Below, in pieces: positions 1 to 54,957 of a stretch of DNA of 64,000 bases (the first letter of the stretch is position 1; the number at the start of each line of letters is the position of its first letter). Under the pieces are notes generated by a model. It worked only from the letters and a program-made list of their open reading frames with translations. It was not told the origin of the DNA and did not search any database. Source of the DNA: Anaerolineae bacterium (lineage in GTDB: Bacteria; Chloroflexota; Anaerolineae; S140-20); NCBI GenBank assembly GCA_027021705.1, contig JALUTT010000145.1, forward strand, positions 827 to 64,826, written 5' to 3'. Both the position numbers and the translations under genes were made by a program.

Positions 1-1
1 C

Positions 2-253
2 AAGGTCTGGGCGCGGGAGCTGGGCCGGTACAACATCCGCGTCAACGCCGTGGCCCCCGGCTTCACCCTCACCGCGATGGTCCGCCAGATGCCGGAGAAG
101 GTCCTGGAGCGGATGCGTGCCCGTATCCCCCTGGGCCGGCTGGCCGATCCCCGCGACATCGCCAACGCCTACCTCTTTCTCGCTTCCGACGAAGCCGCCT
201 ACATCAGCGGCGCGGTCCTGCGGGTGGACGGGGGGATTGTGGTGGGGACGTGA
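2..253 (+). CDS. Short-chain dehydrogenase/reductase, classical SDR, C-terminal fragment (N-terminus lies upstream of the window)
   Basis: Open frame from position 2, reading KVWARELGRYNIRVNAVAPGF...ISGAVLRVDGG, the typical classical SDR C-terminus (FabG-like). Stop TGA at 251-253. Confidence 0.8.
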   Translation, partial: KVWARELGRYNIRVNAVAPGFTLTAMVRQMPEKVLERMRARIPLGRLADPRDIANAYLFLASDEAAYISGAVLRVDGGIVVGT

Positions 254-334
254 GACGTGAGACGTGAGACGTGAAACGTGAGACGTGAGACGTGAGACGT
301 GAAACGTGAAACGTGAGACGTGATGCGTGATACG
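247..334. repeat. Tandem heptanucleotide array (GACGTGA/AACGTGA), about 12 copies; the first unit contains the SDR stop codon
   Basis: Direct read: gacgtga gacgtga gacgtga aacgtga ... tgcgtga tacg. Period is exactly 7. Confidence 0.95.
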
Positions 335-384
335 TCCTGCATCTTGCCTCCTGCCCCCTGTATCTTTGCACAAGTGAGAGAACA

Positions 385-1911
385 ATGATTGTTGGAGACT
401 GGATCGGGCGGCGGGCGCAACTGACGCCGAACAAAGTCGCGTTGGTAGATACCCTCAATTCCGACCGGCGGATCACCTACTGGGAGTGGAGCCAGGCTGT
501 CAACCGGACCGCGCGGTTCCTCCAGGAGCGGCTGGGGGTGCGCAAGGGGGACCGGGTGGCGATCCTGGCCCACAACAGCGTCGAGTACCTGGATCTCTGG
601 TTTGCGCTGGGACGGATCGGCGGGGTGATGCAGACGCTGAACTGGCGGCTGACCCCCCACGAACTGGCGGGGCTGCTGCGGGATGGGGAGCCTGTGGCCC
701 TGGTCTACGGGGAGGAGTTCGCCGAGACGGTGGACCGGCTGCGGGACCGGGTGCCGGGCGTGCCCCGCTACGTGTCGCTGGGGGAGCCGGCTGCCCCGGA
801 CGATCTCCCCTTCGCCGGGCGGGAGGGCTTCTCCGACGCACCGCTGCCGGAGGTGGAGCTGACCTGGGACGACCCCTGGGCCATCTGCTACACCGGCGGC
901 ACGACCGGCCTCCCCAAGGGCGCGGTGCTCACCCACCGGGCCATCACCGCCAACGCCGTCAACACCGTCATCTCCTGGGGGCTCACGCCGGACGACGTGG
1001 CCATCCTCAACGCTCCCCTCTTCCACACCGGCGGCCTCAACGTCTTCACCGCGCCGTTGGTCTACGTCGGCGGCACCAGCATCGTCTGCAAGGGCTTCGA
1101 TCCAGACCAGGTGTTCGACCTGATCCGGGACGCCGGGGTGACGCTCTTCTTCGGCGTGCCGACGATGTTCATTATGCTGCAGCAGCACCCCCGCTGGGAG
1201 GAGGCCGACTTCTCCCGCCTGAAGATCGTTATCAGCGGCGGCGCGCCCTGCCCGATGCCGGTCTTCGAGCGGTTCTGGAAGCGGGGGGTGGACTTCAAGA
1301 CCGGTTACGGGCTCACCGAGGCGGGGCCTAACACCTTCTGGCTCCCGCCGGAGGACGTGCGGCGCAAGCCCGGCTCGGTGGGGTTCCCCCTCTTCCACAT
1401 TGACGTGCGGGTGGTGCGGGAGGATGGGAGCGCCTGCGACCCCGGCGAGGTGGGGGAGCTGATCATCCGTGGCCCCCACGTCTGCGCCGGGTACTGGCGC
1501 AACCCCGAGGCCACCGCCCAGGCGATCCGCGACGGCTGGCTGCACACCGGCGACCTGGCCCGCTACGACGAGGAAGGGTACTACTACATCGTCGGCCGGC
1601 TGAAGGATATGATCATCTCCGGCGGGGAGAACGTCTACCCGGCCGAGGTGGAGAGCGTGATGCACGCCCACCCTGCCGTGGCCGAGGCGGCCCTCATCGG
1701 CGTGCCCCACCCCAAGTGGGGGGAGGTGGGCCGGGCCGTCGTCGTCCTCCGACCCGGCGCTCACCTCACCGAGGAGGCGCTGATCGCCTTCTGCCGGGAG
1801 CGGCTGGCCGGCTTCAAGGTGCCCAAGTCGGTCGTCTTCGTGGACGCGCTGCCCAAGACCGGTGCGAACAAGGTGGACAAGGAGCGGTTGAGGGAGTTGT
1901 ATGGCGCGTGA
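385..1911 (+). CDS. AMP-dependent acyl-CoA synthetase/ligase (fatty-acid or organic-acid CoA ligase), paralogue 1
   Basis: 508 aa. AMP-binding motif YTGGTTGLPKG. C-terminal GDL...YYYIVGRLKDMIISGGENVYPAEVE motif of adenylate-forming enzymes. Confidence 0.9.
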   Translation: MIVGDWIGRRAQLTPNKVALVDTLNSDRRITYWEWSQAVNRTARFLQERLGVRKGDRVAILAHNSVEYLDLWFALGRIGGVMQTLNWRLTPHELAGLLRDGEPVALVYGEEFAETVDRLRDRVPGVPRYVSLGEPAAPDDLPFAGREGFSDAPLPEVELTWDDPWAICYTGGTTGLPKGAVLTHRAITANAVNTVISWGLTPDDVAILNAPLFHTGGLNVFTAPLVYVGGTSIVCKGFDPDQVFDLIRDAGVTLFFGVPTMFIMLQQHPRWEEADFSRLKIVISGGAPCPMPVFERFWKRGVDFKTGYGLTEAGPNTFWLPPEDVRRKPGSVGFPLFHIDVRVVREDGSACDPGEVGELIIRGPHVCAGYWRNPEATAQAIRDGWLHTGDLARYDEEGYYYIVGRLKDMIISGGENVYPAEVESVMHAHPAVAEAALIGVPHPKWGEVGRAVVVLRPGAHLTEEALIAFCRERLAGFKVPKSVVFVDALPKTGANKVDKERLRELYGA

Positions 1912-2014
1912 TGCGTGATGCGTGATGCGTGATGCGTGATGCGTGATGCGTGATACGTGATGCGTGATACGTGATGCGTGATACGTGATGCGTGATGCGT
2001 GATGCGTGATACGT
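1906..2014. repeat. Tandem heptanucleotide array (GCGTGAT/ACGTGAT), about 15 copies; the first unit contains the ligase stop codon
   Basis: gcgtgat x6, then alternating acgtgat/gcgtgat. TGA at 1909-1911 lies in unit 1. Confidence 0.95.
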
Positions 2015-2027
2015 CAAGGGGGCGGGG

Positions 2028-2828
2028 ATGGTCGGAAGGCTGACCGTGGGCGAGATTGCGATGGCTTACGAGGTGACCGGGGAGGGCCACCCGCTGGTGC
2101 TGATCGCCGGCGTGGGGTACGGCGGCTGGTTCTGGCACCGGGTGGTGCCGGCGCTGGCGGAACAGTTCCAGGTCATCACCTTCGACAACCGGGGGGCAGG
2201 CGCCACCGACAAGCCGGACGGACCGTACACGACGCCGATGATGGCCCAGGACACGGCGGGGCTGCTGGACGGGCTGGGCGTGCGGCGTGCCTACGTGATG
2301 GGCCACTCGCTGGGCGGCTTCATCGCCCAGGAGTTGGCCCTGGCCCGGCCCGACCTGGTGGAACGGCTCATCCTGGCCTCCACCACCTACGGCGGCCCCA
2401 ACGTCATCCCCATCACCCCGGAGGCGCTGGAGGTGCTCACGAATCGGGAGGGCGACCCCGTGGAGTTGGTCAGACGGGGGATCGGGGTGGCCTGTGCGCC
2501 GGGCTTCGCCGAGCGGCACCCCGAGGTGGTGCAGGAGCTGCTCGACTACCGGCTCACCAACCCGGTGCCCCCGGCCCAGTACCAGGCCCAGGTGATGGCC
2601 GGGGCGGAGCACAACGCCGAGGAGCGCATCGGCCAGATCACCTGCCCTGTCCTCGTCCTCTTCGGCGAAGACGACAGGGTGGTTCCTCCCGGCAACGCCG
2701 ACCTCCTGGCGCAGAAGCTGCCCAACGCCCGGGTCAAAATCCTCCCCGGCGTGGGCCATATCTTCCCCATCGAGGACCCGGAGGCGACGGTAGAAGCGAT
2801 GCTGGAGTTCCTAAAACCGGAAGCGTAG
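2028..2828 (+). CDS. Alpha/beta-fold hydrolase
   Basis: 266 aa. Nucleophile elbow GHSLGG. Core alpha/beta hydrolase layout with conserved His near the C-terminus (PGVGHIFPIEDP). Confidence 0.8.
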   Translation: MVGRLTVGEIAMAYEVTGEGHPLVLIAGVGYGGWFWHRVVPALAEQFQVITFDNRGAGATDKPDGPYTTPMMAQDTAGLLDGLGVRRAYVMGHSLGGFIAQELALARPDLVERLILASTTYGGPNVIPITPEALEVLTNREGDPVELVRRGIGVACAPGFAERHPEVVQELLDYRLTNPVPPAQYQAQVMAGAEHNAEERIGQITCPVLVLFGEDDRVVPPGNADLLAQKLPNARVKILPGVGHIFPIEDPEATVEAMLEFLKPEA

Positions 2829-2904
2829 AACGTGGAATGTGAAACGTGAAGCGTGGAACGTGAAGCGTGAAACGTGAAGCGTGAAGCGTGGAACGTGAAA
2901 CGTT
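2822..2904. repeat. Tandem heptanucleotide array (RARCGTG), about 11 copies, starting on the hydrolase stop codon
   Basis: gcgtaga acgtgga atgtgaa acgtgaa gcgtgga acgtgaa ... aacgt. Confidence 0.9.
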
Positions 2905-2918
2905 ATAGGGAGTGGTAA

Positions 2919-3911
2919 ATGCGCCACGCACAAATCCTTTCCACCGGCAGCTACGTCCCCGAGCGGGTGGTGACCAACGCCGAGATGGACCGGATCCTGG
3001 GGGAGCCCACCGACGAGTGGCTGGTCGAGAACGTCGGCATTCGGGAGCGGCGGTGGATGAGCCCCGACCAGACCACCTCCGACCTGGCCGTGGAGGCCTC
3101 CCGCCGGGCGCTGGAGCGGGCGGGGATCGGACCGGAGGCGTTGGACCTGATCATCCTCTCCACCGACACTCCCGACTACCTCTCTCCCTCCACCTCCGTG
3201 GTGGTGCAGCACAAGCTGGGGGCGGTCAACGCCGGCTGCTGGGACGTCAACAGCGCCTGTGCCGGATGGGTCACCGCCCTCGACCAGGGAGCCCGCTACA
3301 TCGCCACCGAGCCCTCCCTCCGCTACGTCCTGGTCGCCGGGGCCTACGGGATGAGCCGCTTCCTCGACCTGACCGACAAGCGGACGGCCAACCTCTTTGC
3401 CGACGGGGCGGGGGCCGTGGTGCTGGGGCCGGGTGAGGAACCGGGGTTTCTGGCCAGCAACTTCCTGGCCCGGGGCGAGTTCCACGACGCCCTGGGCATC
3501 TACACCGGTGGGGCCTTCCGCCCCTGCACGCCGGAGAACTTGGAGCGGTACGGCCCGCCGCGCGTCCAGTTCGTCCGCAAGTTCCCCAAGACCTTCAACA
3601 CCGAGTACTGGCCCCGGCTGATCCGGGGGGCGCTGGACAAGGCCGGGCTGACCGTGGACGACGTGGACCTCTTCCTGTTCACCCAACTGAACCTGCGGAC
3701 CATCGAGCTGATGATGGACCTCCTCGGTCAGCCGATCTCCAAGACCCACTGGGTGATGGACAAGTGGGGCTACACCGGCTCCCCCTGCGTGGCGATGGCC
3801 CTGGATGACGCCATCGCCCAGGGCCGTGGCCCCAACCCCGGCGACGTCATCGTCTTCTGCACCAGTGGCGGCGGGATCACGATGGCGGCGTCGGTCTGGC
3901 GGTGGGTGTGA
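2919..3911 (+). CDS. FabH-like 3-oxoacyl-ACP synthase III family condensing enzyme (KAS III / OleA-like thiolase fold)
   Basis: 330 aa. N-terminus ILSTGSYVPERVVTNAEMDRIL. Active-site Cys context NSACAGWVTAL. C-terminal GDVIVFCTSGGGITMAA. Ribosome-binding site GGGAG upstream. Confidence 0.88.
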   Translation: MRHAQILSTGSYVPERVVTNAEMDRILGEPTDEWLVENVGIRERRWMSPDQTTSDLAVEASRRALERAGIGPEALDLIILSTDTPDYLSPSTSVVVQHKLGAVNAGCWDVNSACAGWVTALDQGARYIATEPSLRYVLVAGAYGMSRFLDLTDKRTANLFADGAGAVVLGPGEEPGFLASNFLARGEFHDALGIYTGGAFRPCTPENLERYGPPRVQFVRKFPKTFNTEYWPRLIRGALDKAGLTVDDVDLFLFTQLNLRTIELMMDLLGQPISKTHWVMDKWGYTGSPCVAMALDDAIAQGRGPNPGDVIVFCTSGGGITMAASVWRWV

Positions 3912-3960
3912 CGGAGGACGCAGGGCGCAAGATGCAAGATGCAGGGAGCAAGAGGCAATG
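3908..3960. repeat. Degenerate tandem heptamer array (GCARGRN) spanning the KAS III stop and the next start codon
   Basis: tgacgga ggacgca gggcgca agatgca agatgca gggagca agaggca ATG. Confidence 0.7.
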
Positions 3961-5502
3961 TACGTAGGCGACTATCTCGGCCGGCGGGCGATCTACAGCC
4001 CCGATAGGCTTGCGATCGTGGACGCGGGGAAGGAGCCGGAGTGGCGGCTGACCTACCGGCAGATGAACGAGCGGGCCAATCGGTTCGCCAACTGGCTGCG
4101 GGGCGTGGCAGGCATCGGGAAGGGGGACCGGGTGGCGATCCTGGCCCGCGACGGCGTGGAGCACCTGGACTGCTTCTTCGCCTGCTCCAAGCTGGGGGCC
4201 ATCCACACCGCCCTCAACTGGCGGCTCCACTGGCGGGAGCTGGCGGAGATCGTTCGGAAGACCACCCCCACCGTCCTCATCTACTCCGACGACTTCAGAG
4301 AGAAGGTGGCCCGGCTACACAACGCCACGCGGAACACGGAACACGCCATACGCCATTACCTCCACGTCGAAGGCGAGGGCATCGAGGGCAGCCTCCCCTT
4401 CGAGACCACCCTTCAGGGGAGCCCCGCCGATCCGGTCACCTGTGAGACGGTCGAGGCCGAGGAGATCGTCGCCCTCATCTTCACCGGCGGCACCACCGGC
4501 TTCCCCAAGGCGGCCCAGGTCTCCCACCGGATGATCGCCTGGAACACGCTGAACACCGTCATCCACGACCTGACCCACGACGACATCTACCTCAACGTCT
4601 TCCCTCTGTTCCACACCGGCGGCCTCTTCGTCTACACCCTGCCCCAGGTCATCCTGGGCGGGACCACCATCCTGATCCGCCAGTTCGACCCGGAGCGGGT
4701 GCTGAGGCTCATCGAGCAGGAGCGGGTCACCGTCTTCGCCGGCGTGCCGACGATGTACCAGATGCTCACCCAGGCGGCGAACTGGGAGGAAGCCGATCTC
4801 TCGTCGCTCCGCTTCTGCACCAGCGGCGGCGCTCCCCTGCCGGTTCCCCTGGTGGAGCAGTACACCCGCGAGAAGGGGGTGCGCTTCAAGCAGGGCTTCG
4901 GGATGACCGAGTTCGGTCCGGGCATCTTCGCCCTGGCCCCCGAGGACGCGGTCCGCAAGGCCGGTTCCATCGGTCGCCCCAACTTCTACGTGGACGCGCG
5001 GGTGGTGGACGACGACAACAACCCGCTGGGCTCCAACCAGGTGGGGGAGCTGGTGCTCAAGGGGCCTTCCCTCTGCTCCGGCTACTTCGGCGATCCCCAG
5101 GCCACCGCCGGGATGCTGGACGAAGCGGGGTGGTTCCACACCGGTGACCTGGCCCGCTACGATGAGGAGTGGTACTTCTACATCGTGGACCGCAAGAAGG
5201 ATATGTTCATCTCCGGCGGGGAGAACGTCTACCCGGTGGAGATCGAAAAGGCCCTGTACGAGCATCCCGCCGTCCACATGTGCGCCGTCATCGGCGTGCC
5301 CGACCCCAAGTGGGGGGAGGTGGGGCTTGCCTGCGTGGTCCTCAAGCCGGGGGCCACTGCCACCGAGGAGGAACTGATCGCTTTCCTGCGGGACCGGCTG
5401 GCCCGCTACAAGGTGCCCAAGCGGGTGGTGTTTATGGACCGCCTCCCCATCTCCGGCGCGGGCAAGATCCTGAAGCGGGAACTGCGGGAGTGGTTCGCGT
5501 AA
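3958..5502 (+). CDS. AMP-dependent acyl-CoA synthetase/ligase, paralogue 2
   Basis: The track ORF starts at 3805, overlapping the upstream gene. The start was trimmed to the ATG at 3958 (MYVGDYLGRRAIYSPDRLAIVD, parallel to the N-terminus of paralogue 1). AMP-binding motif FTGGTTGFPKA. Confidence 0.88.
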   Translation: MYVGDYLGRRAIYSPDRLAIVDAGKEPEWRLTYRQMNERANRFANWLRGVAGIGKGDRVAILARDGVEHLDCFFACSKLGAIHTALNWRLHWRELAEIVRKTTPTVLIYSDDFREKVARLHNATRNTEHAIRHYLHVEGEGIEGSLPFETTLQGSPADPVTCETVEAEEIVALIFTGGTTGFPKAAQVSHRMIAWNTLNTVIHDLTHDDIYLNVFPLFHTGGLFVYTLPQVILGGTTILIRQFDPERVLRLIEQERVTVFAGVPTMYQMLTQAANWEEADLSSLRFCTSGGAPLPVPLVEQYTREKGVRFKQGFGMTEFGPGIFALAPEDAVRKAGSIGRPNFYVDARVVDDDNNPLGSNQVGELVLKGPSLCSGYFGDPQATAGMLDEAGWFHTGDLARYDEEWYFYIVDRKKDMFISGGENVYPVEIEKALYEHPAVHMCAVIGVPDPKWGEVGLACVVLKPGATATEEELIAFLRDRLARYKVPKRVVFMDRLPISGAGKILKRELREWFA

Positions 5503-5549
5503 CGGAATACGCAACACGCAATACGTGAAACGTCAAACGTCAAGCGTCT
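5496..5549. repeat. Degenerate tandem heptamer array after the ligase stop
   Basis: gcgtaac ggaatac gcaacac gcaatac gtgaaac gtcaaac gtcaagc gtc. Confidence 0.75.
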
Positions 5550-5568
5550 GGCATTCGGAGGTGACCTT

Positions 5569-6627
5569 ATGGGCGACATACCTACCCTAGAGGGTGTGAC
5601 CTCGCAGATGGTGCAGACCGCCCGGCTCAAGATGCACGTCCTCACCGCCGGGCCGGAGGAGGGCACGCCGGTGCTCTTCATCCACGGCAACGGCTCCTCC
5701 TCGACTTTCTGGGAGGAGACGATGCTGGCGCTGCCGGAGGGGTTCCGAGGCATCGCCCCCGATATGCGGGGCTACGGCGACACCGAGCCCCTGCCGGTGG
5801 ACGCCACCCTGGGCCTGGGCGACATGGTGGAGGACGTCCGCTCGCTGGTGGAAGCGATGGGGCTGGGCAAGTTCCACATCGTCGGCCACTCGATGGGCGG
5901 GGGGGTCGTGATGAAGTACGCCATCGCCTACCCGGACGATCTCCTCTCCATCACCCTGGTGGACACTATGTCTCCCTACGGCTACAGCGGGAGCAAGGAC
6001 GTGGATGGAACCCCCTGCCACGAGGACGGGGCGCCGGCCGGGGCCGCCGGCGTTAACCCCGACTTTGTCAAGCTGATGGCGGCCGGGGAGCGGGACACCG
6101 AGAACCCTATGGCCCCCCGCAACGTGATGCGCCAGTTCTACTTCAAGCCGCCCTTTATCCCCGAGCGGGAGGAGGACCTGCTCAGCTCTATGCTCTCGAC
6201 CCGGGTGGGGGAGGACTGGTATCCGGGCGACTCGGTTCCCTCGGAGCACTGGCCGGGGGCCGCACCGGGGAAGCGGGGGGTGATCAACGCCATCAGCCGC
6301 AAGTACTTCGACGCCAGCGGCATCGTGGAGATCGAGCCCAAGCCGCCTGTGCTGTGGATTCGGGGGGCGGACGACCTGGTGGTCTCCAACAACGCGATGT
6401 GGGACATCGCTGCCCTGGGGGCGATGGGCTTCGTTCCCGGCTGGCCCGGCCCCGACGACTGCCCGCCCCAGCCGATGCTGGACCAGACGCGGGCTGTGCT
6501 GGAGCGGTACCAGGCCAGGGGCGGCTCCTACGAGGAGGTCGTCATCGCCGACGCCGGCCACTGCCCCTTCATCGAGAAGCCCGGCGAGTTCAACGCGGCC
6601 TTCCACGCCTTTCTGCGAGGGGCGTGA
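5569..6627 (+). CDS. Alpha/beta-fold hydrolase (haloalkane-dehalogenase-like subfamily motif HGNGSSSTFW)
   Basis: 352 aa. Nucleophile elbow GHSMGGG. N-terminal LFIHGNGSSSTFWEE resembles the HGNPTSSYLW motif of dehalogenase/OleB-type hydrolases. Ribosome-binding site GGAGG upstream. Confidence 0.8.
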   Translation: MGDIPTLEGVTSQMVQTARLKMHVLTAGPEEGTPVLFIHGNGSSSTFWEETMLALPEGFRGIAPDMRGYGDTEPLPVDATLGLGDMVEDVRSLVEAMGLGKFHIVGHSMGGGVVMKYAIAYPDDLLSITLVDTMSPYGYSGSKDVDGTPCHEDGAPAGAAGVNPDFVKLMAAGERDTENPMAPRNVMRQFYFKPPFIPEREEDLLSSMLSTRVGEDWYPGDSVPSEHWPGAAPGKRGVINAISRKYFDASGIVEIEPKPPVLWIRGADDLVVSNNAMWDIAALGAMGFVPGWPGPDDCPPQPMLDQTRAVLERYQARGGSYEEVVIADAGHCPFIEKPGEFNAAFHAFLRGA

Positions 6628-6706
6628 GGCGAACCTGGAGGGCGAACCTGAAAGCCCGACAGGAACCGGACGAGGCGCTATCTGCACCGAGCAAGGAGGA
6701 GAAAAG

Positions 6707-8116
6707 ATGACGAGGAAAAGCTTCGCATGGTCGTTGGTGGCTGTGGTGGCGGTGTTGGGGCTGCTCCTGGCCGCCTGCAAGCCGTCCCCCACGCCCACCC
6801 CGCCGCCCCCCACGGAGGCCCCCACCAAGGCTCCCACCCAGCCGCCGGTGGAGAAGCCTACGGAGGAGGCGACCGAGGCCCCTGCTCAGCCGCCGACCGA
6901 GGAACCGACGGAGGTGCCCCCAGAAACGCCCACGGAGGAAGCGCCTTTCGCCGGCAAGCCCCTGAAGGTCGGCCTGCTCACCGACCAGTCGGGCCCCCTG
7001 GCCATCTACGGCCCGATGCAGGAGCGGGGCTTCCGGCTGGGGCTGGAGTACGCCACCGGTGGCACGATGGAGGTGGCCGGGCGGCCCATCGAGGTGATCG
7101 TCCGCGATAACGGCAGCGACCCGGAGAAAGCCGTCTCGGACGCCCGCGAGCTGATCGAGGCCGAGGGGGTGGAGGTCCTGGTCGGCACGGTCAGCTCCGG
7201 CGCGACGATGGCCGTCCAGCAGGTGGCGGCCGAGAACAAGACCATCCTCATCGTCGAGCCGGCCGCTGCCACCGACATCACCGGTAAGAACTTCAACCCC
7301 TACACCTTCCGCACCAGCCGCACCAACTACCAGGATGCCCTCGTGATGGGCCAGGGCCTGCTGGAGATGGGCGACACCTTCGTCCAGGTCGCCCCGGACT
7401 ACGCCTTCGGCTACGGCTCGGCCTGTGGCTTCTACGCCGTGGTCAAGGGGGGCGGAGGCACCTTCCCCATCAACGACACCCCTGAGCAGTGCGGTGCCGT
7501 CTTCATCCCCTTCGACACCACCGACTTCACCCCGTACCTCCAGCAGGTGTTGGACGCCGATGCGGATGTGCTGATCGTCACCTGGGCCGGGGCCGGCTTC
7601 GTGCCCCTCTTCCAGCAGATGCAGCAACTGGGCATCTTCGACGAGATGGTCGTCGGCACCGGCATCGGCGACAACCAGACGCTGGCCGCGGGCTACGTCA
7701 ACGCCATCGGCTCCACCGGCATCGTCGTCTACCACTACACCCTGCCCGACAACCCGGTCAACGACTGGCTGGTCCAGCGCCACATCGAGGAGTACGGCAC
7801 CCCGCCTGACCTATTCACCAGCGGGGGGATGGCCGCGGCCATCATGCTGGTCGAGGGGGTGAAGCGGACCAACGGCGACACCAGCGCCGATGCCCTCATC
7901 CAGGTCTACGAGGACGACTTCACCTTCGAGGGCCCCAACGGCACCTACATCATCCGCCCCTACGACCACGTCGCCCTGATGCCGCTCTACTACGTCCGCC
8001 TGACCAACGTCACCGACCCTGACTTCAAGTTCGTCGAGCTGATCCGCGAGTTCGCTCCCGAGGAGGCCGCGCCGCCGTGCCTCCTGGAGGGCGAGTACGC
8101 CGACCGCTGTCCATAG
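6707..8116 (+). CDS. ABC transporter substrate-binding lipoprotein, Leu/Ile/Val-binding (LivJ/LivK, PBP1) family
   Basis: Signal peptide with lipobox LLAAC. Long Pro/Thr/Glu-rich linker. Type-1 periplasmic binding-protein body. Ribosome-binding site GGAGGAG. Confidence 0.8.
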   Translation: MTRKSFAWSLVAVVAVLGLLLAACKPSPTPTPPPPTEAPTKAPTQPPVEKPTEEATEAPAQPPTEEPTEVPPETPTEEAPFAGKPLKVGLLTDQSGPLAIYGPMQERGFRLGLEYATGGTMEVAGRPIEVIVRDNGSDPEKAVSDARELIEAEGVEVLVGTVSSGATMAVQQVAAENKTILIVEPAAATDITGKNFNPYTFRTSRTNYQDALVMGQGLLEMGDTFVQVAPDYAFGYGSACGFYAVVKGGGGTFPINDTPEQCGAVFIPFDTTDFTPYLQQVLDADADVLIVTWAGAGFVPLFQQMQQLGIFDEMVVGTGIGDNQTLAAGYVNAIGSTGIVVYHYTLPDNPVNDWLVQRHIEEYGTPPDLFTSGGMAAAIMLVEGVKRTNGDTSADALIQVYEDDFTFEGPNGTYIIRPYDHVALMPLYYVRLTNVTDPDFKFVELIREFAPEEAAPPCLLEGEYADRCP

Positions 8117-8128
8117 GAGGCCCCCGGG

Positions 8129-8171
8129 GTAGGGGCGACCGGCCGGTCGCCCGTCCGCCGGTCGCCCCTAC
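8129..8171 (+). promoter_or_regulatory. Perfect 14-bp inverted repeat (stem-loop) between the substrate-binding and ATPase genes, likely an mRNA-stabilising/attenuating hairpin
   Basis: gtaggggcgaccgg ... ccggtcgcccctac with a 15-nt loop. Confidence 0.55.
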
Positions 8172-8196
8172 CCGCCGTCGCCCTGGGGGATGTGCC

Positions 8197-8952
8197 GTGG
8201 AACCACCCATCGTCCTGGAGACCCGGAACCTGCGCAAGGAGTTCGACGGGCTGGTCGCCGTCGCCGACGTCTCGATGAAGGTGCGGGAGGGCCACCTGCA
8301 CGCCATCATCGGCCCCAACGGTGCCGGCAAGACGACCCTCTTCAACCTCATCAGCGGCCACATCCCGCCGACCGCCGGGCGCGTCTACCTGCGGGGGCGG
8401 GAGATCACCGGCCTGCCGCCCCACCGCATCGCGCGGCTGGGGATCGGGCGCTCCTTCCAGATCACCAACCTCTTCCCCAACCTGACCGTGCTGGAGAACA
8501 TCCGGCTGGCCGCCCAGGCACGGGGCCGGGACAGCCTCAAGTTCTGGTCCTCCCACCGCCGCTTCCGCCGGTATCGGGAGCGGGCGATGGAGGTGATCCG
8601 GCAGGTCGGCCTCTCCGGCCGTGAGCAGCTCCCGGCGCGGGTCCTCCCCCACGGCGACCAGCGGAAGCTGGAGATCGGCATCCTCCTGGCCTCCGACCCC
8701 CAGGTGCTGCTCCTGGACGAGCCGACGGCGGGGATGGCGGCGGAGGAGGTGCCCCTGCTGGTGGAGACGATCCGCCGCATCCAGGAAGAGGGCAACCGGA
8801 CGATCCTGCTGGTGGAGCACAAGATGGACGTGGTGATGACCATCTCCGACCGGGTCACGGTGATGCACCAGGGTCGCGTCCTGGCCGAAGGAACTCCGGC
8901 CCAGATCGCCGCCGACGAGCGGGTGCAGCGGGCTTACCTGGGGGAGATGTAG
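8197..8952 (+). CDS. ABC transporter ATP-binding protein (LivG-like)
   Basis: Walker A GPNGAGKTT, signature and Walker B motifs. Start taken at GTG 8197 (VEPPIVLETRNLRKEF), because the track ORF's ATG at 8077 overlaps the upstream gene. Confidence 0.85.
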   Translation: MEPPIVLETRNLRKEFDGLVAVADVSMKVREGHLHAIIGPNGAGKTTLFNLISGHIPPTAGRVYLRGREITGLPPHRIARLGIGRSFQITNLFPNLTVLENIRLAAQARGRDSLKFWSSHRRFRRYRERAMEVIRQVGLSGREQLPARVLPHGDQRKLEIGILLASDPQVLLLDEPTAGMAAEEVPLLVETIRRIQEEGNRTILLVEHKMDVVMTISDRVTVMHQGRVLAEGTPAQIAADERVQRAYLGEM

Positions 8953-8954
8953 CG

Positions 8955-9665
8955 ATGGGGCGATACCTGCTGGAGGTCCGGGAGATCCACACCTTCATCG
9001 GCCAGTTCCACATCCTTCAGGGCGTCTCGCTGGCGGTGCCGGAGGGGAGCATCACCGCCGTCCTGGGCCGCAACGGGGCCGGCAAGACGACGACCCTCAA
9101 GTCGGTCCTGGGCCTCACCCCGCCGCGCCGGGGCAGGGTGCTCCTCGCCGGGCAGGAGGTTCAGGGCCGGCCCGCCTACGAGATCGCCGCGATGGGGGTG
9201 GGGTACGTCCCCGAGCACCGGGCCATCTTCACCGACCTCACCGTCGCCGAGAACCTGCGCATCGCCGAGCGGCGGCGGGGCGACCTGGAGCGGCGGGCCG
9301 ACTTCATCTTTGGCCTCTTCCCGGACCTGAAGCGGCTCTACCGGCTGCCCGGAGGCCATCTCTCCGGCGGGCAGCAGCAGATGCTCGCCATCGCTCGGGC
9401 GCTGGTGCCGGACAACCGGCTGCTGCTGATTGACGAGCCGAGCGAAGGGCTGGCCCCCATCCTGATCCAGCAGTTGATGGAAGCAATTCGTCGCCTCTCC
9501 GAACGGGTGACCGTGGTGCTGGTGGAGCAGAACTTCCAGATGGCCAGCCAACTGGCCGACCGGTACGTGATCATTGACGACGGGCGTTCGGTCCGCTCCG
9601 GCCCGATGGCCGAGCTGCTGGAGGATGAGGCGACGGTCCGCCGCTACCTGGGCGCGGTCGTGTGA
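8955..9665 (+). CDS. ABC transporter ATP-binding protein (LivF-like)
   Basis: Walker A GRNGAGKTT. LSGGQQQMLAIARAL signature. Confidence 0.88.
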   Translation: MGRYLLEVREIHTFIGQFHILQGVSLAVPEGSITAVLGRNGAGKTTTLKSVLGLTPPRRGRVLLAGQEVQGRPAYEIAAMGVGYVPEHRAIFTDLTVAENLRIAERRRGDLERRADFIFGLFPDLKRLYRLPGGHLSGGQQQMLAIARALVPDNRLLLIDEPSEGLAPILIQQLMEAIRRLSERVTVVLVEQNFQMASQLADRYVIIDDGRSVRSGPMAELLEDEATVRRYLGAVV

Positions 9666-19181: not shown

Positions 19182-19285
19182 CAATTCGCAACTTGCAACT
19201 TGCAACTTGCAACTTGCAATCTGCAACCTGCAACTTGCAACCTGCAACTTGTAACTTGCACCTTGCACCTTGCACCTTGCAACTT
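19182..19285. repeat. Tandem heptanucleotide array (CAACTTG, with CAACCTG/CACCTTG variants), about 15 copies, in the pckA 5' leader
   Basis: caacttg x4, caatctg, caacctg, caacttg ... caccttg x3. Confidence 0.95.
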
Positions 19286-29917: not shown

Positions 29918-32021
29918 GGTCGGGGAAGCGGTGGAGGAGAGGAGCCTGGCCCAGCCCATCCCAGACGCCCGCATCCTGGTCGTCGAGGATCACGTGGGAA
30001 CGGCCAAGCTGATCAGCCGTCTGCTGGAGAGGGCGGGGTATACCGCCCTGGAGTTCCACAGCGGTGAGGAGGCCCTGGACTTCGTCCAGGCCGTGGCGGC
30101 TGGTCAGGAGCCCCCCATTGATATGGCGATCCTGGATGTGATGATGCCCGGCGTGGACGGCTTCCAGGTCTGCGAGCGGATCCGCCAAACGGATCTGCCC
30201 GGCTACGTGCCGGTGCTGATGCTCACCGCGCTCACCTCGATCCGGGACAAAGTGAAGGGGCTGGACCTGGGAGCCGATGACTACCTGACCAAGCCCTTTA
30301 ACCACCAGGAGCTCCTGGCTCGGGTGCGGGCAGGGCTGCGGGTTCGCCAGGCAGAACAGGCCCTCTACCAGCGCAACCGACAACTGGCAGTCCTCCACCG
30401 GATCACCCAGGCGGTCAACTCCAGCCTGGAACTGGACGATGTGCTGACCATCGCGATGGAGGGGATTCAAGAACTCCTCCACGTCGAAGGGGGGTCTCTG
30501 CTCCTCGCCGACGACAAGCGGCAGACACTGACCTTCGTCCGCGCCTTGAGCCGGAATCGTGTCTCGGTGCTCAACCACACCATCGCCATCGGCGAGGGCC
30601 TCGTCGGCCAGGTGATCCGGGAGGGGCGGTCCATCTTGCTCAACGATCTTCAACAAGACCCTCAGTGGGAGGACTGTTTCAACCGGATTCTGGGGCTCAC
30701 CGCCCGGAACCTCCTCTGCGTTCCCCTGCAAGTCCGGGAGCAGGTCATCGGGGCCATTGGGGTGGTCAACAAGTGGGATGGTCCCTTCACCCCGGAGGAT
30801 CAGGGGATCCTGGAGTTGATGGCGGCTTCGGTGGCGACGGCCACGGAGAACGCCCGCCTCTTCTACGAGTTGGCCTCGGCCTACGCCGGTCTGGAGAGCA
30901 GCCGACAAGCGATTATCGAGCACCGCAACCGGCTCCAAGCTCTCTTCGACGGCATCTCTGACCGTATCTACGTGATAGATGTCAACTATCGCCTGCAAGC
31001 GGTCAACGCTGCTCAGGCTCGATGGTTGGGCAAGAAGCACGACTCACCACTGGAGGGCCTTTGCTACGCTATCCTCTACGGACGCAGGATCCCTTGTGAG
31101 GGATGTCAAGTGATGGCGGCCTTCACCCACCGCACAGTCCAGAGCTGGTCGGAGCGCCGCCGCCGGCCCGATGGACGCCGGGAGGAGTGGGAGATCAATG
31201 CCTACCCGGTCCTCAATCGGGGCGGGGAGGTGGAGCAGGCGATCCTCTTTGTCCGCGATGTGACCAAACAGCGAATGCTGGAGGCCTCGTTGCACCAGTC
31301 GGAGAAGCTGGCCGCGCTGGGCCAACTGGCTGCCGGCCTGGCCCACGAGATCAATAATCCCCTCACCGCCATCCTGGCCAACACCCAGCTCCTCCTGCTG
31401 GATACACCTCCCGAAGACCCCGCCTACGAGTCCTTGGACCTGATCCTGCGGGCCAGTGAACGGGCCATCCGGGTGGTGCGCAACCTATTGGACTTTGCCC
31501 GGCAAGAGGCTTACGATTTCGAGCCGGTAGACCTGAATCAGACGATCCGCAATGCCCTGGACCTGGTGCGCCATCAGTTCGACCTAGCCGGCATCGAGGT
31601 CATCTGCGACCTGGCTCCGGGCCTGCCCCCCGCCTACGCTAGCCGTGATCACCTGCAGAGCGTCTGGCTGAACCTTCTCCTGAACGCCCGGGATGCCCTC
31701 CTGGAGGCCGCTGAGAAGCCTCAGCGCTGGGTGCGGATCACCACATCCATCGAAGCCGACTGGTTGCAGGTCCAGGTGATGGACAATGGTGTGGGCATCC
31801 CGGAGCCCCACCTGAGCCGCATCTTCGAGCCCTTTTTCACCACCAAGGCCCCCGGCAAAGGGACCGGTCTGGGCCTCTCCACCTCTTATCAGATCATCCA
31901 GCAGCACCAGGGCCAGATCCTTGTGGACAGTGACCCGGATCAGGGGACGACTTTCACGGTGCTTCTACCGACCGCCAGCCGCAGACCGCCGACCAGGCGG
32001 CCAAGCGGCCAAGCGGCCTAG
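29892..32021 (+). CDS. Hybrid sensor histidine kinase with N-terminal receiver, GAF and PAS domains (REC-GAF-PAS-HisKA-HATPase_c)
   Basis: ILVVEDHV...[11 protein letters not shown] receiver. H-box [11 protein letters not shown]. HATPase G-boxes. Start uncertain (29892 ATG overlaps the regulator gene by 26 nt). The 3' end is encoded by a short tandem-repeat tract. Confidence 0.8.
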
Positions 32022-32116
32022 CGACCTAGCGACTCGGCGGCGAACTGAGGACCGGGGACTGAGGACCGAGGACTACCTGGCCAAGCGACCATCCGACCAA
32101 AGCGAGGAGTGAGACG

Positions 32117-32887
32117 ATGCGCAAACCCATCATCGCCGGAAACTGGAAGATGCACAAGACGGTCGCCGAAGCAGTCCAGATGATCCGGGAGTTGATCCCG
32201 GCGCTGGCGTCGGTGGACCCGGAGGCGGTAGATGTGGTCGTCTGCCCGCCCTTCACCGCGCTCCAGGCGGTGCGCGAGGCGATTGGTCCGGCCCCCATCG
32301 GCCTGGGGGCGCAGAACATGCACTGGGAACCCCAAGGCGCTTTCACCGGCGAGATCTCCCCCCGGATGCTCAAGGAGCTCTGCCAGTACGTGATCATCGG
32401 CCATTCGGAGCGGCGGCAGTACTTCGGTGAGACGGATGAAGGGGTCAATCGGAAGCTCCAGGCGGCATTGGCCCACGGCCTGACGCCCATCGTCTGCGTG
32501 GGGGAGAACCTGGAGCAGAACGAGGCCGGGCGGACAGAGGCGGTTGTGGGCGGACAGGTGCGGGCCGCCTTCGCCGGCCTGACGGCCGAGCAGGCTCAGC
32601 AGGTGATCTTGGCCTACGAGCCCATCTGGGCCATCGGCACGGGAAAGCCGGCCACGGGACCGGGAGCCAACGCCATCATCGCCCAGGCGATCCGAGGCAC
32701 GCTGGCCGACCTCTATGGGGAGACGGTGGCCCAGGCGATCCGGGTCCAGTACGGGGGGAGCGTGAAGCCCAACAACATCGCCGAATTCATGGCCCAGCCA
32801 GAGATTGACGGGGCCCTGGTGGGCGGAGCATCCCTCAAGGCAGAGAGCTTCGCCGGCATCATCCGCAACGGTCTGGCCGCCCTGTAA
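32117..32887 (+). CDS. tpiA: Triosephosphate isomerase
   Basis: 256 aa. IAGNWKMHK. AYEPIWAIGTGK active-site loop. Confidence 0.95.
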   Translation: MRKPIIAGNWKMHKTVAEAVQMIRELIPALASVDPEAVDVVVCPPFTALQAVREAIGPAPIGLGAQNMHWEPQGAFTGEISPRMLKELCQYVIIGHSERRQYFGETDEGVNRKLQAALAHGLTPIVCVGENLEQNEAGRTEAVVGGQVRAAFAGLTAEQAQQVILAYEPIWAIGTGKPATGPGANAIIAQAIRGTLADLYGETVAQAIRVQYGGSVKPNNIAEFMAQPEIDGALVGGASLKAESFAGIIRNGLAAL

Positions 32888-39524: not shown

Positions 39525-39636
39525 GACCGCCATCGGTCGCTGAGGGGCCGGGAGATTCAAAGACATCTCGCGCACAGCCCTGGGCTACACCCAGGGCTGT
39601 GGTTTTTCCTGTGTCAGCCGTCAACGAATGTCCAAC

Positions 39637-40177
39637 GAGTGTGACCAAAATGGGTTGGAGGCGGTAGAAGCGCAACGCCCCTGCATCTTTCCCCCAACAG
39701 CCTCCGATCACGCTCGGTCCAAAAGCCCCCGGAATCACTGAAGCACTGAGGGAAGTGAAGACACTGAGCCGTCGTCTCCCATCCGTTCAATCCGTTCCCC
39801 AATCCGTTGACAGCTCGTCCGCTCCGGCCACGGCGAGAGACACAAAGGGCACCAAGAGCTCAAAGGGCACGAAGCGGTGCGAAAGGCTGGACAAGCCCTC
39901 TTGGGAGCACCACCCCCCCATCCGTTCCAAATCCGTTCAATCCGTTCCCAATCCGTTGACAGCTATCCGTTCCCCAATCCGTTGACAGCTTGTCCGTCCG
40001 CCAACCAAGCCCTCAGAATCACTGACGCACTGAGGGAGGTGAAGACACCGAGCCTTGGGCAGTGCGGCCCAGGTCGTCGGCAAGGCCGTGACCCGACGCC
40101 GGGGAGGGAGTGCATCACTCCTCAGTGAGCTCATTTCTCTCAGCGCTTCAGTGGTTCAACAGCTTTTGGTCACGCTC
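39637..40177. mobile_element. Complex MITE-like element, copy 1 (541 bp), with about 15-bp terminal inverted repeats (GAGTGTGACCAAAA / TTTTGGTCACGCTC), an internal AATCCGTT/TTGACAGCT-rich tandem unit, and a 9-bp direct repeat (ATGTCCAAC / ATATCCAAC)
   Basis: Direct repeats at 39628-39636 and 40178-40186. Same family as 53890-54780. Confidence 0.75.
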
Positions 40178-40357
40178 ATATCCAACGAATAAGCGAATGC
40201 GAATGGATGGTGTTGACGAGGCTCCGGCTTTGCGTTACACTTGGGGTGGTCGGTTGTCGGGGCTCCCTGCTGGTCTGCCGTCCACCGGGCCACCGAATGG
40301 CGAACCCGGCGGGAGCAGAGAGGTGGGAGCGGACACGCGCGATGAGAACAAGGAGGC

Positions 40358-46575: not shown

Positions 46576-46596
46576 TAATGTTCCTCGGCGTCCAAG

Positions 46597-46650
46597 GTAG
46601 TCGGGTGGTCGGGTGGTCGCTTGGTCAGGTGGTCAGGTGCTCGTTTGCTC
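46597..46650. repeat. Heptamer-periodic array (GGTCRNN), the inverted counterpart of the array at 48020-48110
   Basis: gtcgggtggtcgggtggtcgcttggtcaggtggtcagg is the reverse complement of cctgaccacctgaccaagcgaccacccgac at the other border. Confidence 0.8.
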
Positions 46651-46684
46651 AGATAGCGTCGGAATGTGAAACCTGATTACCTCC

Positions 46685-48008: not shown

Positions 48009-48019
48009 CGTCTCTCCTC

Positions 48020-48110
48020 CGCTGACCGCCGACCGCCGACCATTCGACCAGGCGACCACCTGACCACTCGACCAAGCGACCACCTGACCACCCGACCAAA
48101 TTATAACCGC
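48020..48110. repeat. Heptamer-periodic array (CGACCRN), the inverted partner of the array at 46597-46650
   Basis: cgaccgc cgaccgc cgaccat tcgacca ggcgacc acctgac cactcga ccaagcg accacct gaccacc cgaccaa. Confidence 0.8.
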
Positions 48111-53867: not shown

Positions 53868-53889
53868 GCAAGTACCTCTGATTTCAAAC

Positions 53890-54780
53890 GAGTGTGACCA
53901 AAATGGGTTGGAGGCGGTAGAAGCGCAACGCCCCTGCATCTTTACCCCAGCAGCTTCCGGTCACGCTCGGTTCAAAAGCCCCCGGAATCACTGACGCACT
54001 GAGGGAAGTGAAGACACTGAACCGTCATCCCCCATCCGTTCAATCCGTTCCCCAATCCGTTGACAGCTCGTCCGCTCCGGCCACGGCGGGAGACACGAAG
54101 GACACCAAGAGCTCAAAGAGCACGAAGCGGTGCGAAGGTCTGGACAAGCCCTCTTGGGGGCACCACCCCCCCATCCGTTCCCAATCCGTTCAATCCGTTC
54201 CCAATCCGTTGACAGCTATCCGTTCCCCAATCCGTTGACAGCTCGTCCGCTCCGGCCACGGCGGGAGACACGAAGGACACCAAGAGCTCAAAGAGCACGA
54301 AGCGGTGCGAAGGTCTGGACAAACCCTCTTGGGGGCACCACCCCCCCATCCGTTCCCAATCCGTTCAATCCGTTCCCAATCCGTTGACAGCTATCCGTTC
54401 CCCAATCCGTTGACAGCTCGTCCGCTCCGGCCACGGCGGGAGACACGAAGGACACCAAGAGCTCAAAGAGCACGAAGCGGTGCGAAGGTCTGGACAAACC
54501 CTCTTGGGAGCACCAACCCCCCATCCGCTCCAAATCCGTTCAATCCGTTCCCAATCCGTTGACAGCTATCCGTTCCCCAATCCGTTGACAGCTTGTCCGT
54601 CCGCCAACCAAGCCCTCAGAATCACTGACGCACTGAGGGAGATGAAGACACTGAGCCTTGTGCAGGGCGGCCCAGGTCGTCGGCAAGGCCGTGACCCGAC
54701 GGTGGGGAGGGGGCACACAACCCCTCAGTGAGCTCATTTCTTTCAGTTGCTCAGTGATTCAACGGCTTTTGGTCACGCTC
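53890..54780. mobile_element. Complex MITE-like element, copy 2 (891 bp), with the same terminal inverted repeats as 39637-40177, about 3.5 internal ~175-bp tandem units, and a perfect 9-bp target-site duplication ATTTCAAAC
   Basis: ATTTCAAAC at 53881-53889 and 54781-54789. Terminal repeats gagtgtgaccaaaa / ttttggtcacgctc. Each internal unit has three TTGACAGCT and multiple ATCCGTT. Confidence 0.8.
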
Positions 54781-54957
54781 ATTTCAAACTTCCTCACGAC
54801 AGCGCTTGCCGTCTTGTCATCTGCGCAAAATGTCTCAAAATCCATTCCCTCTACAAATGTCTCGATGCTCTCCATGGCGGCTAGGATGTCCTTCAGGTAC
54901 AATCGGTAGTCTCTCATATCGGTACGACCTCCGACAGTACCCCCAAACCGTCCTTTG

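Follow-up and report, generated by a model that had tools for sequence, protein, structure and literature searches.

We analyzed a stretch of 64,000 nucleotides (nt) from an Anaerolineae bacterium (GenBank assembly GCA_027021705.1, contig JALUTT010000145.1, positions 827 to 64,826 of the forward strand; the whole stretch is referred to here as the window), in which tandem heptanucleotide arrays lie between the genes of an operon. The operon occupies the first 8 kb of the window as one co-directional gene cluster, in the order short-chain dehydrogenase (end of the gene), ACS1, ABH1, KAS3, ACS2, and ABH2, followed by genes for a solute-binding protein and an ABC transporter. The genes that border the arrays are as follows.

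2..253, + strand: 3' end of the short-chain dehydrogenase gene, with the stop codon TGA at 251-253 (frame read from the sequence)
385..1911, + strand: ACS1, AMP-binding acyl-CoA synthetase/ligase family (Pfam AMP-binding, E = 4e-90)
2028..2828, + strand: ABH1, alpha/beta hydrolase (Pfam Abhydrolase_1, E = 1.7e-33)
2919..3911, + strand: KAS3, FabH-like 3-oxoacyl-ACP synthase III family (Pfam ACP_syn_III and ACP_syn_III_C)
3958..5502, + strand: ACS2, paralogue of ACS1 (49% identity)
5569..6627, + strand: ABH2, second alpha/beta hydrolase (Pfam Abhydrolase_1, E = 1.2e-31)

The full dehydrogenase gene, with adh_short domains, was called on a near-identical contig (L001; related loci and contigs carry L numbers here). 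The closest genomes are metagenome-assembled genomes of Thermoflexia and Anaerolineae (Chloroflexota), with a top ACS1 identity of 92%, and the source of the window is a Thermoflexia-like, hot-spring member of the Chloroflexota. An initial annotation, made from the sequence alone, had described the genes of the locus as paralogous, which the identity of ACS1 and ACS2 bears out, and had given a G+C content of 68%. We measured 66-67% in the window, which resembles Thermoflexus hugenholtzii (67.3% G+C; growth at 67.5-75 C; PMC8129789).

Arrays were detected with Tandem Repeats Finder and by direct reading of the sequence; their regularity is expressed as the identity between positions 7 nt apart (lag-7 identity). 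Array 6 lies beyond the region that the initial annotation had covered.

247..335, + strand: array 1, GACGTGA, 12.7 copies (91% matches; score 136; lag-7 identity 0.91)
1906..2014, + strand: array 2, GCGTGAT/ACGTGAT, 15.6 copies, i.e., 15 units (93% matches; score 190)
2820..2903, + strand: array 3, GAAGCGT/GAAACGT/GGAACGT, about 12 units (scores 94-105)
3912..3957, + strand: array 4, YGCARGR, about 6.5 degenerate units filling the entire gap (lag-7 identity 0.72)
5503..5548, + strand: array 5, CGYNAAN, degenerate, about 6.5 units (lag-7 identity 0.79 for the core, 0.63 for the gap as a whole)
6628..6706, + strand: sixth gap, not heptameric (lag-7 identity 0.33, reached by 13% of windows)
19188..19285, - strand: array 6, AAGTTGC/AAGGTGC, 14 copies (score 140)

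Arrays 1 to 3 are far beyond chance, given that the best period-7 score in 30 dinucleotide-preserving shuffles of the window was 38, compared with 94 to 190 for these arrays. Tandem Repeats Finder sees arrays 4 and 5 weakly (rows scoring 30 to 36 at 3910-3958 and a row scoring 38 at 5523-5548). The lag-7 identity of array 4 tops that of all other 46-nt windows in the 64 kb (maximum, 0.59), and that of the array 5 gap tops all other 66-nt windows (maximum, 0.53); these two are genuine degenerate heptamer arrays. The heptamer arrays of the initial annotation are therefore real by score against shuffles and by lag-7 identity (0.63 to 0.93), and the units of the different arrays are, as it had stated, mutually related. 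Its claim that every gap is an array stood for five of the six gaps in 247-6706 and failed for the sixth, which holds two copies of a 15-nt motif, GGCGAACCTGRA, and a Shine-Dalgarno (SD) sequence. The copy numbers, put there at 8 to 15, actually range from about 6.5 to 15.6.

All of the arrays are in noncoding DNA, each in the interval from one gene's stop codon to the start codon of the following gene. In three cases, the upstream stop codon had been assigned to the first repeat unit, and we reached the same result for the dehydrogenase, ACS1, and ABH1: the dehydrogenase TGA closes the first unit of array 1, the ACS1 TGA (1909-1911) is inside the first unit of array 2, and the ABH1 TAG (2826-2828) straddles units 1 and 2 of array 3. 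On the 3' side, array 1 is followed by a 49-nt nonrepeat tail up to the ATG at 385, array 2 ends 13 nt upstream of the ATG at 2028, and an SD-like GGGAG follows array 3. The last units of array 4 contain a purine-rich SD-like sequence, GGGAGCAAGAGG, and the ACS2 ATG at 3958, which matches the one case of a ribosome-binding site and start codon within the final units in the initial annotation. Array 5 is preceded by the ACS2 stop codon TAA (5500-5502) within the unit-like GCGTAAC and followed by GGAGGTGA and then the ABH2 ATG at 5569. Arrays 1 to 3 have stops in all three sense frames, and the antisense strand of array 1 has no stop codons.

Array 6, between the genes for a trypsin-like peptidase and PEPCK, begins 2 nt past a TGA stop codon and ends about 40 nt before the PEPCK start. 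Its anatomy is that of the operon arrays, and its unit, AAGTTGC, is unrelated to theirs. A census of the 64 kb and an additional 9.6 kb thus gave five related arrays in one operon and one unrelated array elsewhere.

To compare strains, we located contigs via proteins identical or 99% identical to ABH1 and KAS3. Contigs L161, L163, L169, and L170 represent at least four other samples, and L164 and L166 match the window; the coding sequence of the strain contigs is 98-99.5% identical to that of the window. Array 2 occurs with 13, 15, or 17 units (gaps of 102, 116, and 130 nt), and array 3, in three strains, with 12, 13, or 14 units (gaps of 90, 97, and 104 nt). The differences in allele length of these two arrays are exact multiples of 7 without exception, the length polymorphism that the initial annotation had predicted, and the order of the variant units inside the arrays is reshuffled between strains. 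Gain or loss of units keeps both flanking reading frames intact. Array 4 is constant at 46 nt, with one substitution, in the four contigs compared (98.7-100% identity). The long pure arrays change rapidly and the short degenerate ones are frozen, and this sparing of short impure tracts is what would be expected from slippage.

The clean step-of-7 signal is confined to strains with at least 98% identity. Among loci with 88-98% identical flanks, a length difference divisible by 7 was counted in only 5 of 15 informative pairs (about 2 expected); other insertions and deletions blur the signal. Arrays are identical in the pairs with at least 99.5% flank identity (L002/L081, L098/L100, L146/L147, and window/L001), some of which may be the same population and hence say little on stability.

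One of the strain contigs (L169; GCA_027016555.1, JALUST010000503.1; 98.7% identity) lacks 774 nt corresponding to window positions 5502-6275. The ACS2 stop codon and array 5 mark the precise start of the missing segment, which takes out the first two thirds of ABH2; the strain may truly have lost it, or the contig may have been joined across it during assembly.

The operon is conserved across Anaerolineae, with the order ACS1-ABH1-KAS3-ACS2-ABH2 kept in about 70 loci from genome and metagenome collections. Relatives with a G+C content of 49-62% (L005-L009 and L091-L095) have no arrays and have compact gaps, which range from an overlap of the genes to a spacer of 26 nt; these gaps contain little beyond the stop codon and an SD motif. 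In many other relatives, heptamer arrays with other units, copy numbers, and orientations lie in the same gaps. The initial annotation would have counted arrays that are invariant across strains and absent from orthologous loci as evidence against a function in phase variation, and this is not the pattern seen. The units of relatives include CGTCAAA, CGTGAAA, CGTAAAA, CGCAACA, ACGGAAT, CAGTGAG, GAAAGTG, and GGTTCCA, and neither unit sequence nor orientation is conserved. The closest species (L002; 92% amino acid identity) has the same gaps filled with CGTCAAA units, and its genome and that of the window each hold minority units of the other's type. In three loci with 95-98% identical flanks (L084, L086, and L087), one gap measures 90, 20, or 19 nt and another 19, 33, or 39 nt, and where flanks are 97% identical, a given gap may contain 10 units in one genome and none in another. 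The arrays are therefore quickly gained, lost, and resized, and they are dispensable. In 1.87 Mb of related loci, 169 tandem arrays have 4 or more copies and a period of at most 15, and the period is 7 in 109 of them; the context statistics outside the operon are approximate, as the caller based on open reading frames (ORFs) put several gap arrays inside ORFs.

Arrays of this kind were also seen in three Holophagae metagenome-assembled genomes (Acidobacteriota; L013, L026, and L028), whose ACS1 is 68-72% identical and in which arrays of ATTTCGA, AGATGCA, AGAACGA, and AAGTTGA occur right after ACS1 and elsewhere. The heptamer habit is therefore not limited to Chloroflexota. The KAS3 homologues P0124-P0127, P0131, and P0152 have 344-347 amino acids (aa), i.e., 7-17 residues above the 330-aa norm; it is possible that gene callers extended the ORF upstream into stop-free arrays.

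The position of the arrays relative to stop codons has a simple account. Among 54 operon-gap arrays, 21 have their first base between -8 and +1 nt relative to where the stop codon ends, and most end 0-25 nt before the next ATG. A compact gap consists only of the stop codon and the SD motif, and any expansion must therefore abut the stop codon; placement in the only dispensable stretch is in itself enough to explain the overlap. In the window, the dehydrogenase, ACS1, ABH1, and ACS2 genes all end in [AG]CG plus a stop codon, which is the core of the ACGTGA/GCGTGA units. The last codon differs in the array-free relatives, and in L014 and L011 the ACS2 frame now terminates at a TGA supplied by the array. 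The array may have grown from the last codon and stop, or it may instead have replaced a variable residue at the C terminus.

The arrays combine head-to-tail 7-nt units beyond chance, a noncoding location, and strain variation in whole units, which are the marks of variable-number tandem repeats (VNTRs). They are probably largely neutral heptanucleotide simple-sequence repeats of variable copy number, expanded by slippage from a seed beside the stop codon in the only dispensable stretch of a compact operon, with uncoupled cistrons as a side effect. Slipped-strand mispairing during replication would create and resize the arrays. We infer slippage because the changes are in whole units and because the arrays that vary are the purer and longer ones. 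For a period that is not a multiple of 3, the sole harmless place would be the stretch from the stop codon to the ribosome-binding site of the next gene. The probable seed is the final codon together with its stop, [AG]CG-TGA-N, a sequence identical to the unit of arrays 1 to 3. Since 7 and 3 have no common factor, a TGA-containing unit gives stops in all three frames within 21 nt, and encroachment of the array past the gene end is therefore harmless. Expansion would have turned packed cistrons into cistrons spaced by a variable 46-130 nt, thus removing tight translational coupling, and no sequence-specific function would be required.

Several observations weigh against near-neutral expansion. 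The operon is a hot spot in many genomes, with 1.72 arrays per 10 kb versus 0.51 in the flanks (3.4-fold; p = 4e-7). Units are closer between different gaps of one genome than in the same gap across genomes (mean distance, 2.24 versus 2.65; permutation p = 0.012). The mRNA strand is purine- and A-rich (A>T in 44 arrays versus 13), although this bias could be a product of seeding on purine-rich stop codons and SD motifs. The SD motif is absent from 10 of 41 gaps with arrays and from 5 of 104 others, i.e., five times more often (p = 0.001-0.007). These four comparisons draw on related, nonindependent sequences. In addition, arrays 2, 3, and 6 fold well as sense RNA, and the alleles come from short-read metagenome assemblies that break at arrays, so that some could be misassembled.

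Two further features of the operon bear on its interpretation. In one subclade (L104:4150-4640, L145:1364-1877, and L148:6991-7455, as well as L116, L153, and L154), the KAS3-ACS2 gap contains a gene of 121 aa belonging to the "23S rRNA intervening-sequence protein"/four-helix-bundle family (PF05635, E = 2e-37; TIGR02436). The gene is flanked by inverted arrays, (AGTGGGA)n and (CCCACTN)n, which are predicted to pair with each other as a long-range stem (z = -4.6). In the predicted folds of sister genomes (L120, L127, and L108), the same arms enclose a loop of about 5-15 nt. By analogy, the PF05635 gene with its inverted arrays would resemble an rRNA intervening sequence within an operon spacer. 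The other feature lies inside a gene.

4322..4356, + strand: in-frame heptamer stretch in ACS2, acgccac gcggaac acggaac acgccat acgccat (residues about 122-133)

Its lag-7 identity (0.75) is the maximum of the gene, and the site is heptamer-periodic, with other units, in 12 related loci. In-frame repeats at this site were noted in L011 (acggaat acggaat acgcaat acgcaat), L096, L098, L101, L123, L125, L129, L141, and L145 (cactacc, three times). The encoded peptide is the three-frame translation of the unit, and the units resemble the intergenic units of the clade.

The main rival to slippage without a function is a role in translation. The arrays would then be tunable spacers, i.e., purine-rich mRNA leaders that uncouple cistrons, act as ribosome standby or enhancer sites (e.g., for protein S1 or cold-shock proteins), and can replace the SD motif, with slippage in steps of 7 adjusting enzyme ratios. 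Judged from sequence features, such tuning is possible, but we regard it as unlikely. The strand bias, the shortage of SD motifs, and the conserved hot spot agree with it, as do the allelic differences between strains, the finish of the arrays 0-25 nt ahead of the next start codon, and the extension of the array to the KAS3 ATG in L083, L086, L087, and L098. It is difficult to reconcile, however, with the presence of 0 or 10 units in one gap between nearly identical flanks and with the many arrays that are inverted pairs with strong hairpins, the opposite of an open leader; arrays 2 and 3 of the window are themselves predicted to fold, and the SD loss may be mere collateral damage of expansion. 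Classical on/off phase variation is not expected, because the arrays lie outside reading frames and core promoters. The folding itself suggests another role, namely, that self-complementary units or inverted arrays form long imperfect hairpins. As processing or stability elements (e.g., cleavage sites for RNase III or barriers to 3' exonucleases), these would make mRNA half-life differ from cistron to cistron. The sense RNA of array 2 is predicted to form a G.U-rich periodic hairpin (-53.8 kcal/mol; z = -4.0), and the sense folds of array 3 (z = -5.1) and array 6 (-54.6 kcal/mol; z = -7.75) are also well below expectation. For arrays 2 and 3, G.U pairs make the sense fold much stronger than the antisense one, and arrays 2 and 6 retain about -20 kcal/mol at 70 C. 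Hairpins with heptamer periodicity also occur in relatives (-29 to -51 kcal/mol; z = -6 to -8.7), and in the subclade described above the arms pair across the PF05635 gene, like rRNA intervening sequences. Even so, we consider this role very unlikely, as arrays 4 and 5 show no structure (z = +0.1 and +0.3), array 1 is marginal (z = -2.3), hairpin arms have unequal copy numbers, and the 4-bp helices with 3x3 loops of arrays 1 and 3 are only partly stable when folded at 70 C (array 1 gap, -13.6 kcal/mol; array 3, -5.1 kcal/mol). Selection for self-complementary units was tried as an explanation and rejected: 64 unit classes averaged -16.6 kcal/mol versus -18.0 kcal/mol for composition-matched permuted units (p = 0.6). 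Without such enrichment, the good folds of arrays 2, 3, and 6 are probably incidental.

The likeness of units within a genome could also mean that the arrays are a dispersed satellite family with its own means of spreading, or binding-site arrays for a sequence-specific factor, which share units by copying or by coevolution with a protein. This is highly improbable in our judgment, despite the greater similarity of units across nonhomologous gaps within a genome, the 12-32% of clade unit pairs within one mismatch (2% for permuted units), the in-frame stretch in ACS2, the bracketing of inserted genes by inverted arrays, and the transposition-like spread proposed for the (GATAGRA)n satellites (PMC6749651). 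One unit of the window, AAGTTGC, is unrelated to the others, unit families shift between close species, and no candidate protein is encoded nearby, the upstream genes being those for NB-ARC/TPR and MalT-like regulators. Like units can also arise independently from the common gene ending NCG-TGA at high G+C. A comparison, in five genomes, of the heptamers inside ACS2 with the intergenic units of the same genome gave 2.0 versus 2.6. An assembly artefact deserves almost no credence. The short-read contigs L161, L164, and L166 do break inside arrays 2 and 3, but an independent 60-kb ENA contig has the same arrays at equal length, with 99.99% identity over 11.9 kb and no gaps; contigs from other samples carry partial copies of the arrays, and comparable arrays occur in dozens of unrelated assemblies. 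Finally, the arrays might be a maintained class of intercistronic elements across Anaerolineae, kept over class-level divergence, homogenized per genome, replacing SD motifs, forming hairpins that can carry a 23S-intervening-sequence-type gene in the loop, and found even in frame in ACS2; a trans-acting factor or an RNase sensing the 7-nt periodicity would read them, and slippage would set enzyme expression. We consider this quite unlikely. The hot spot, the periodic hairpins, the intervening-sequence-type gene, and the in-frame ACS2 stretch are the most interesting leads, rather than established parts of such a system.

The arrays belong to a known class of repeats, here in a lineage from which the literature searched contains no report of it: we found none on heptamer repeats in Thermoflexus or Anaerolineae, and the Thermoflexus genome paper does not mention such repeats. 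As cited in later papers, heptanucleotide repeats are the commonest class of long simple-sequence repeats in prokaryotes, and the cause put forward for them is slippage associated with the footprint of the polymerase (Mrazek 2007, via PMC4679880 and PMC4692102). So far as these citations describe them, the repeats of Mrazek, Guo and Shah (2007) share with those of the window the head-to-tail 7-nt units, the noncoding location, the sporadic occurrence across lineages, and the length variation among relatives; the window differs in its Thermoflexia-like host and in having five arrays in one operon that is a class-wide hot spot. Among the Chloroflexota, Chloroflexus aurantiacus has 22 (GATAGRA)n satellites (PMC6749651). 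These likewise form a heptamer-derived, genome-specific family in noncoding DNA, but they belong to the class Chloroflexia and have another unit, and a position at stop codons is not described there (PMC6749651).

The initial annotation had likened the arrays to the STRR heptamers of cyanobacteria, which is apt as an analogy. The STRR consensus units are CCCCAGT (STRR1), TTGGTCA (STRR2), and CAACAGT (STRR3); they have no tandem copy on either strand of the window. The STRR of heterocystous cyanobacteria are also tandem heptamers, often in operons and with genome-specific unit families, but they differ in units, phylum, and G+C content, and the arrays of the window, from a host that is not a cyanobacterium, are not STRR. 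An example in Nostoc is a 26-unit GGGGATT array between pecE and pecF (PMC4692102). In Xanthomonas, GGGAATC repeats occur between the same genes in two species with extensive variation in length and sequence, and some are in inverted pairs, as here; they are G-rich and form G-quadruplexes, whereas the units of the window have no G-runs (PMC4692102). The TAACTGA repeats of Beggiatoaceae, cyanobacteria, and Bacteroidetes are heptamer direct repeats just upstream of start codons, where canonical ribosome-binding sites are often missing (PMC4679880). They share with our arrays the position close upstream of starts and differ in usually having 2-6 copies in the Beggiatoaceae genome studied, the window arrays being longer (PMC4679880). 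Tandem copies of TAACTGA, GGGAATC, and GATAGRA were not found in the window.

TAACTGA-like ACTGATN units were observed in Anaerolineae of intermediate G+C content (L107, L111, L116, L121, and L127). The ABH1-KAS3 gap of L098 reads TGA ttactga taactgt ccactga ctaca ATG, with the unit family of PMC4679880.

A further comparison concerns tandem repeats that switch genes. In the phase-variable contingency loci of Haemophilus, Neisseria, and Moraxella, repeats in the reading frame, between promoter elements, or in the 5' untranslated region of surface-protein genes switch expression. Hypermutability and strain-variable copy number are common to both, but the window arrays come after the stop codon of one metabolic gene and before the ribosome-binding site of the next; in this position, and with unit changes that spare both reading frames, they are not classical contingency loci. 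Across the whole window, no Rfam model matched at the gathering score, and the arrays fall into no Rfam family. A scan of window positions 1-9000 found no sigma-70-like promoter, and terminator-like sites there were fewer than expected from shuffles.

The operon bears on the function of heptamers, a question that has stood since STRR, and on the preference for period 7. It extends the phenomenon to thermophilic Chloroflexota and offers a simple account of arrays that start on stop codons. Its relatives provide a natural allelic series in near-identical genes, from no array through 12-17 units to inverted hairpin arrays, which makes spacer length, orientation, and structure readily amenable to comparison and to reporter tests. 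In practical terms, the arrays fragment short-read assemblies and can mislead gene callers.

The window contains other repeats outside the operon. Inverted octamer arrays, (GGTGGTCG)n at 46596-46652 and (CGACCACC)n at 48019-48099, surround a 1.4-kb island with a G+C content of 50-64% (about 70% in the flanks) that carries genes for a HicA toxin and a HicB antitoxin and two small ORFs. Two copies of a noncoding element with similar ends lie at 39620-40190 and 53870-54790; the first has a single internal 175-bp unit, which contains the reiterated motif ATCCGTTCCCCAATCCGTTGACAGCT, and the second has 3.2 such units. At 31990-32074, in the gap before the gene at 32117, the octamer CCAAGCGG (4.9 copies) is mixed with the heptamer ACTGAGG (4.4 copies).

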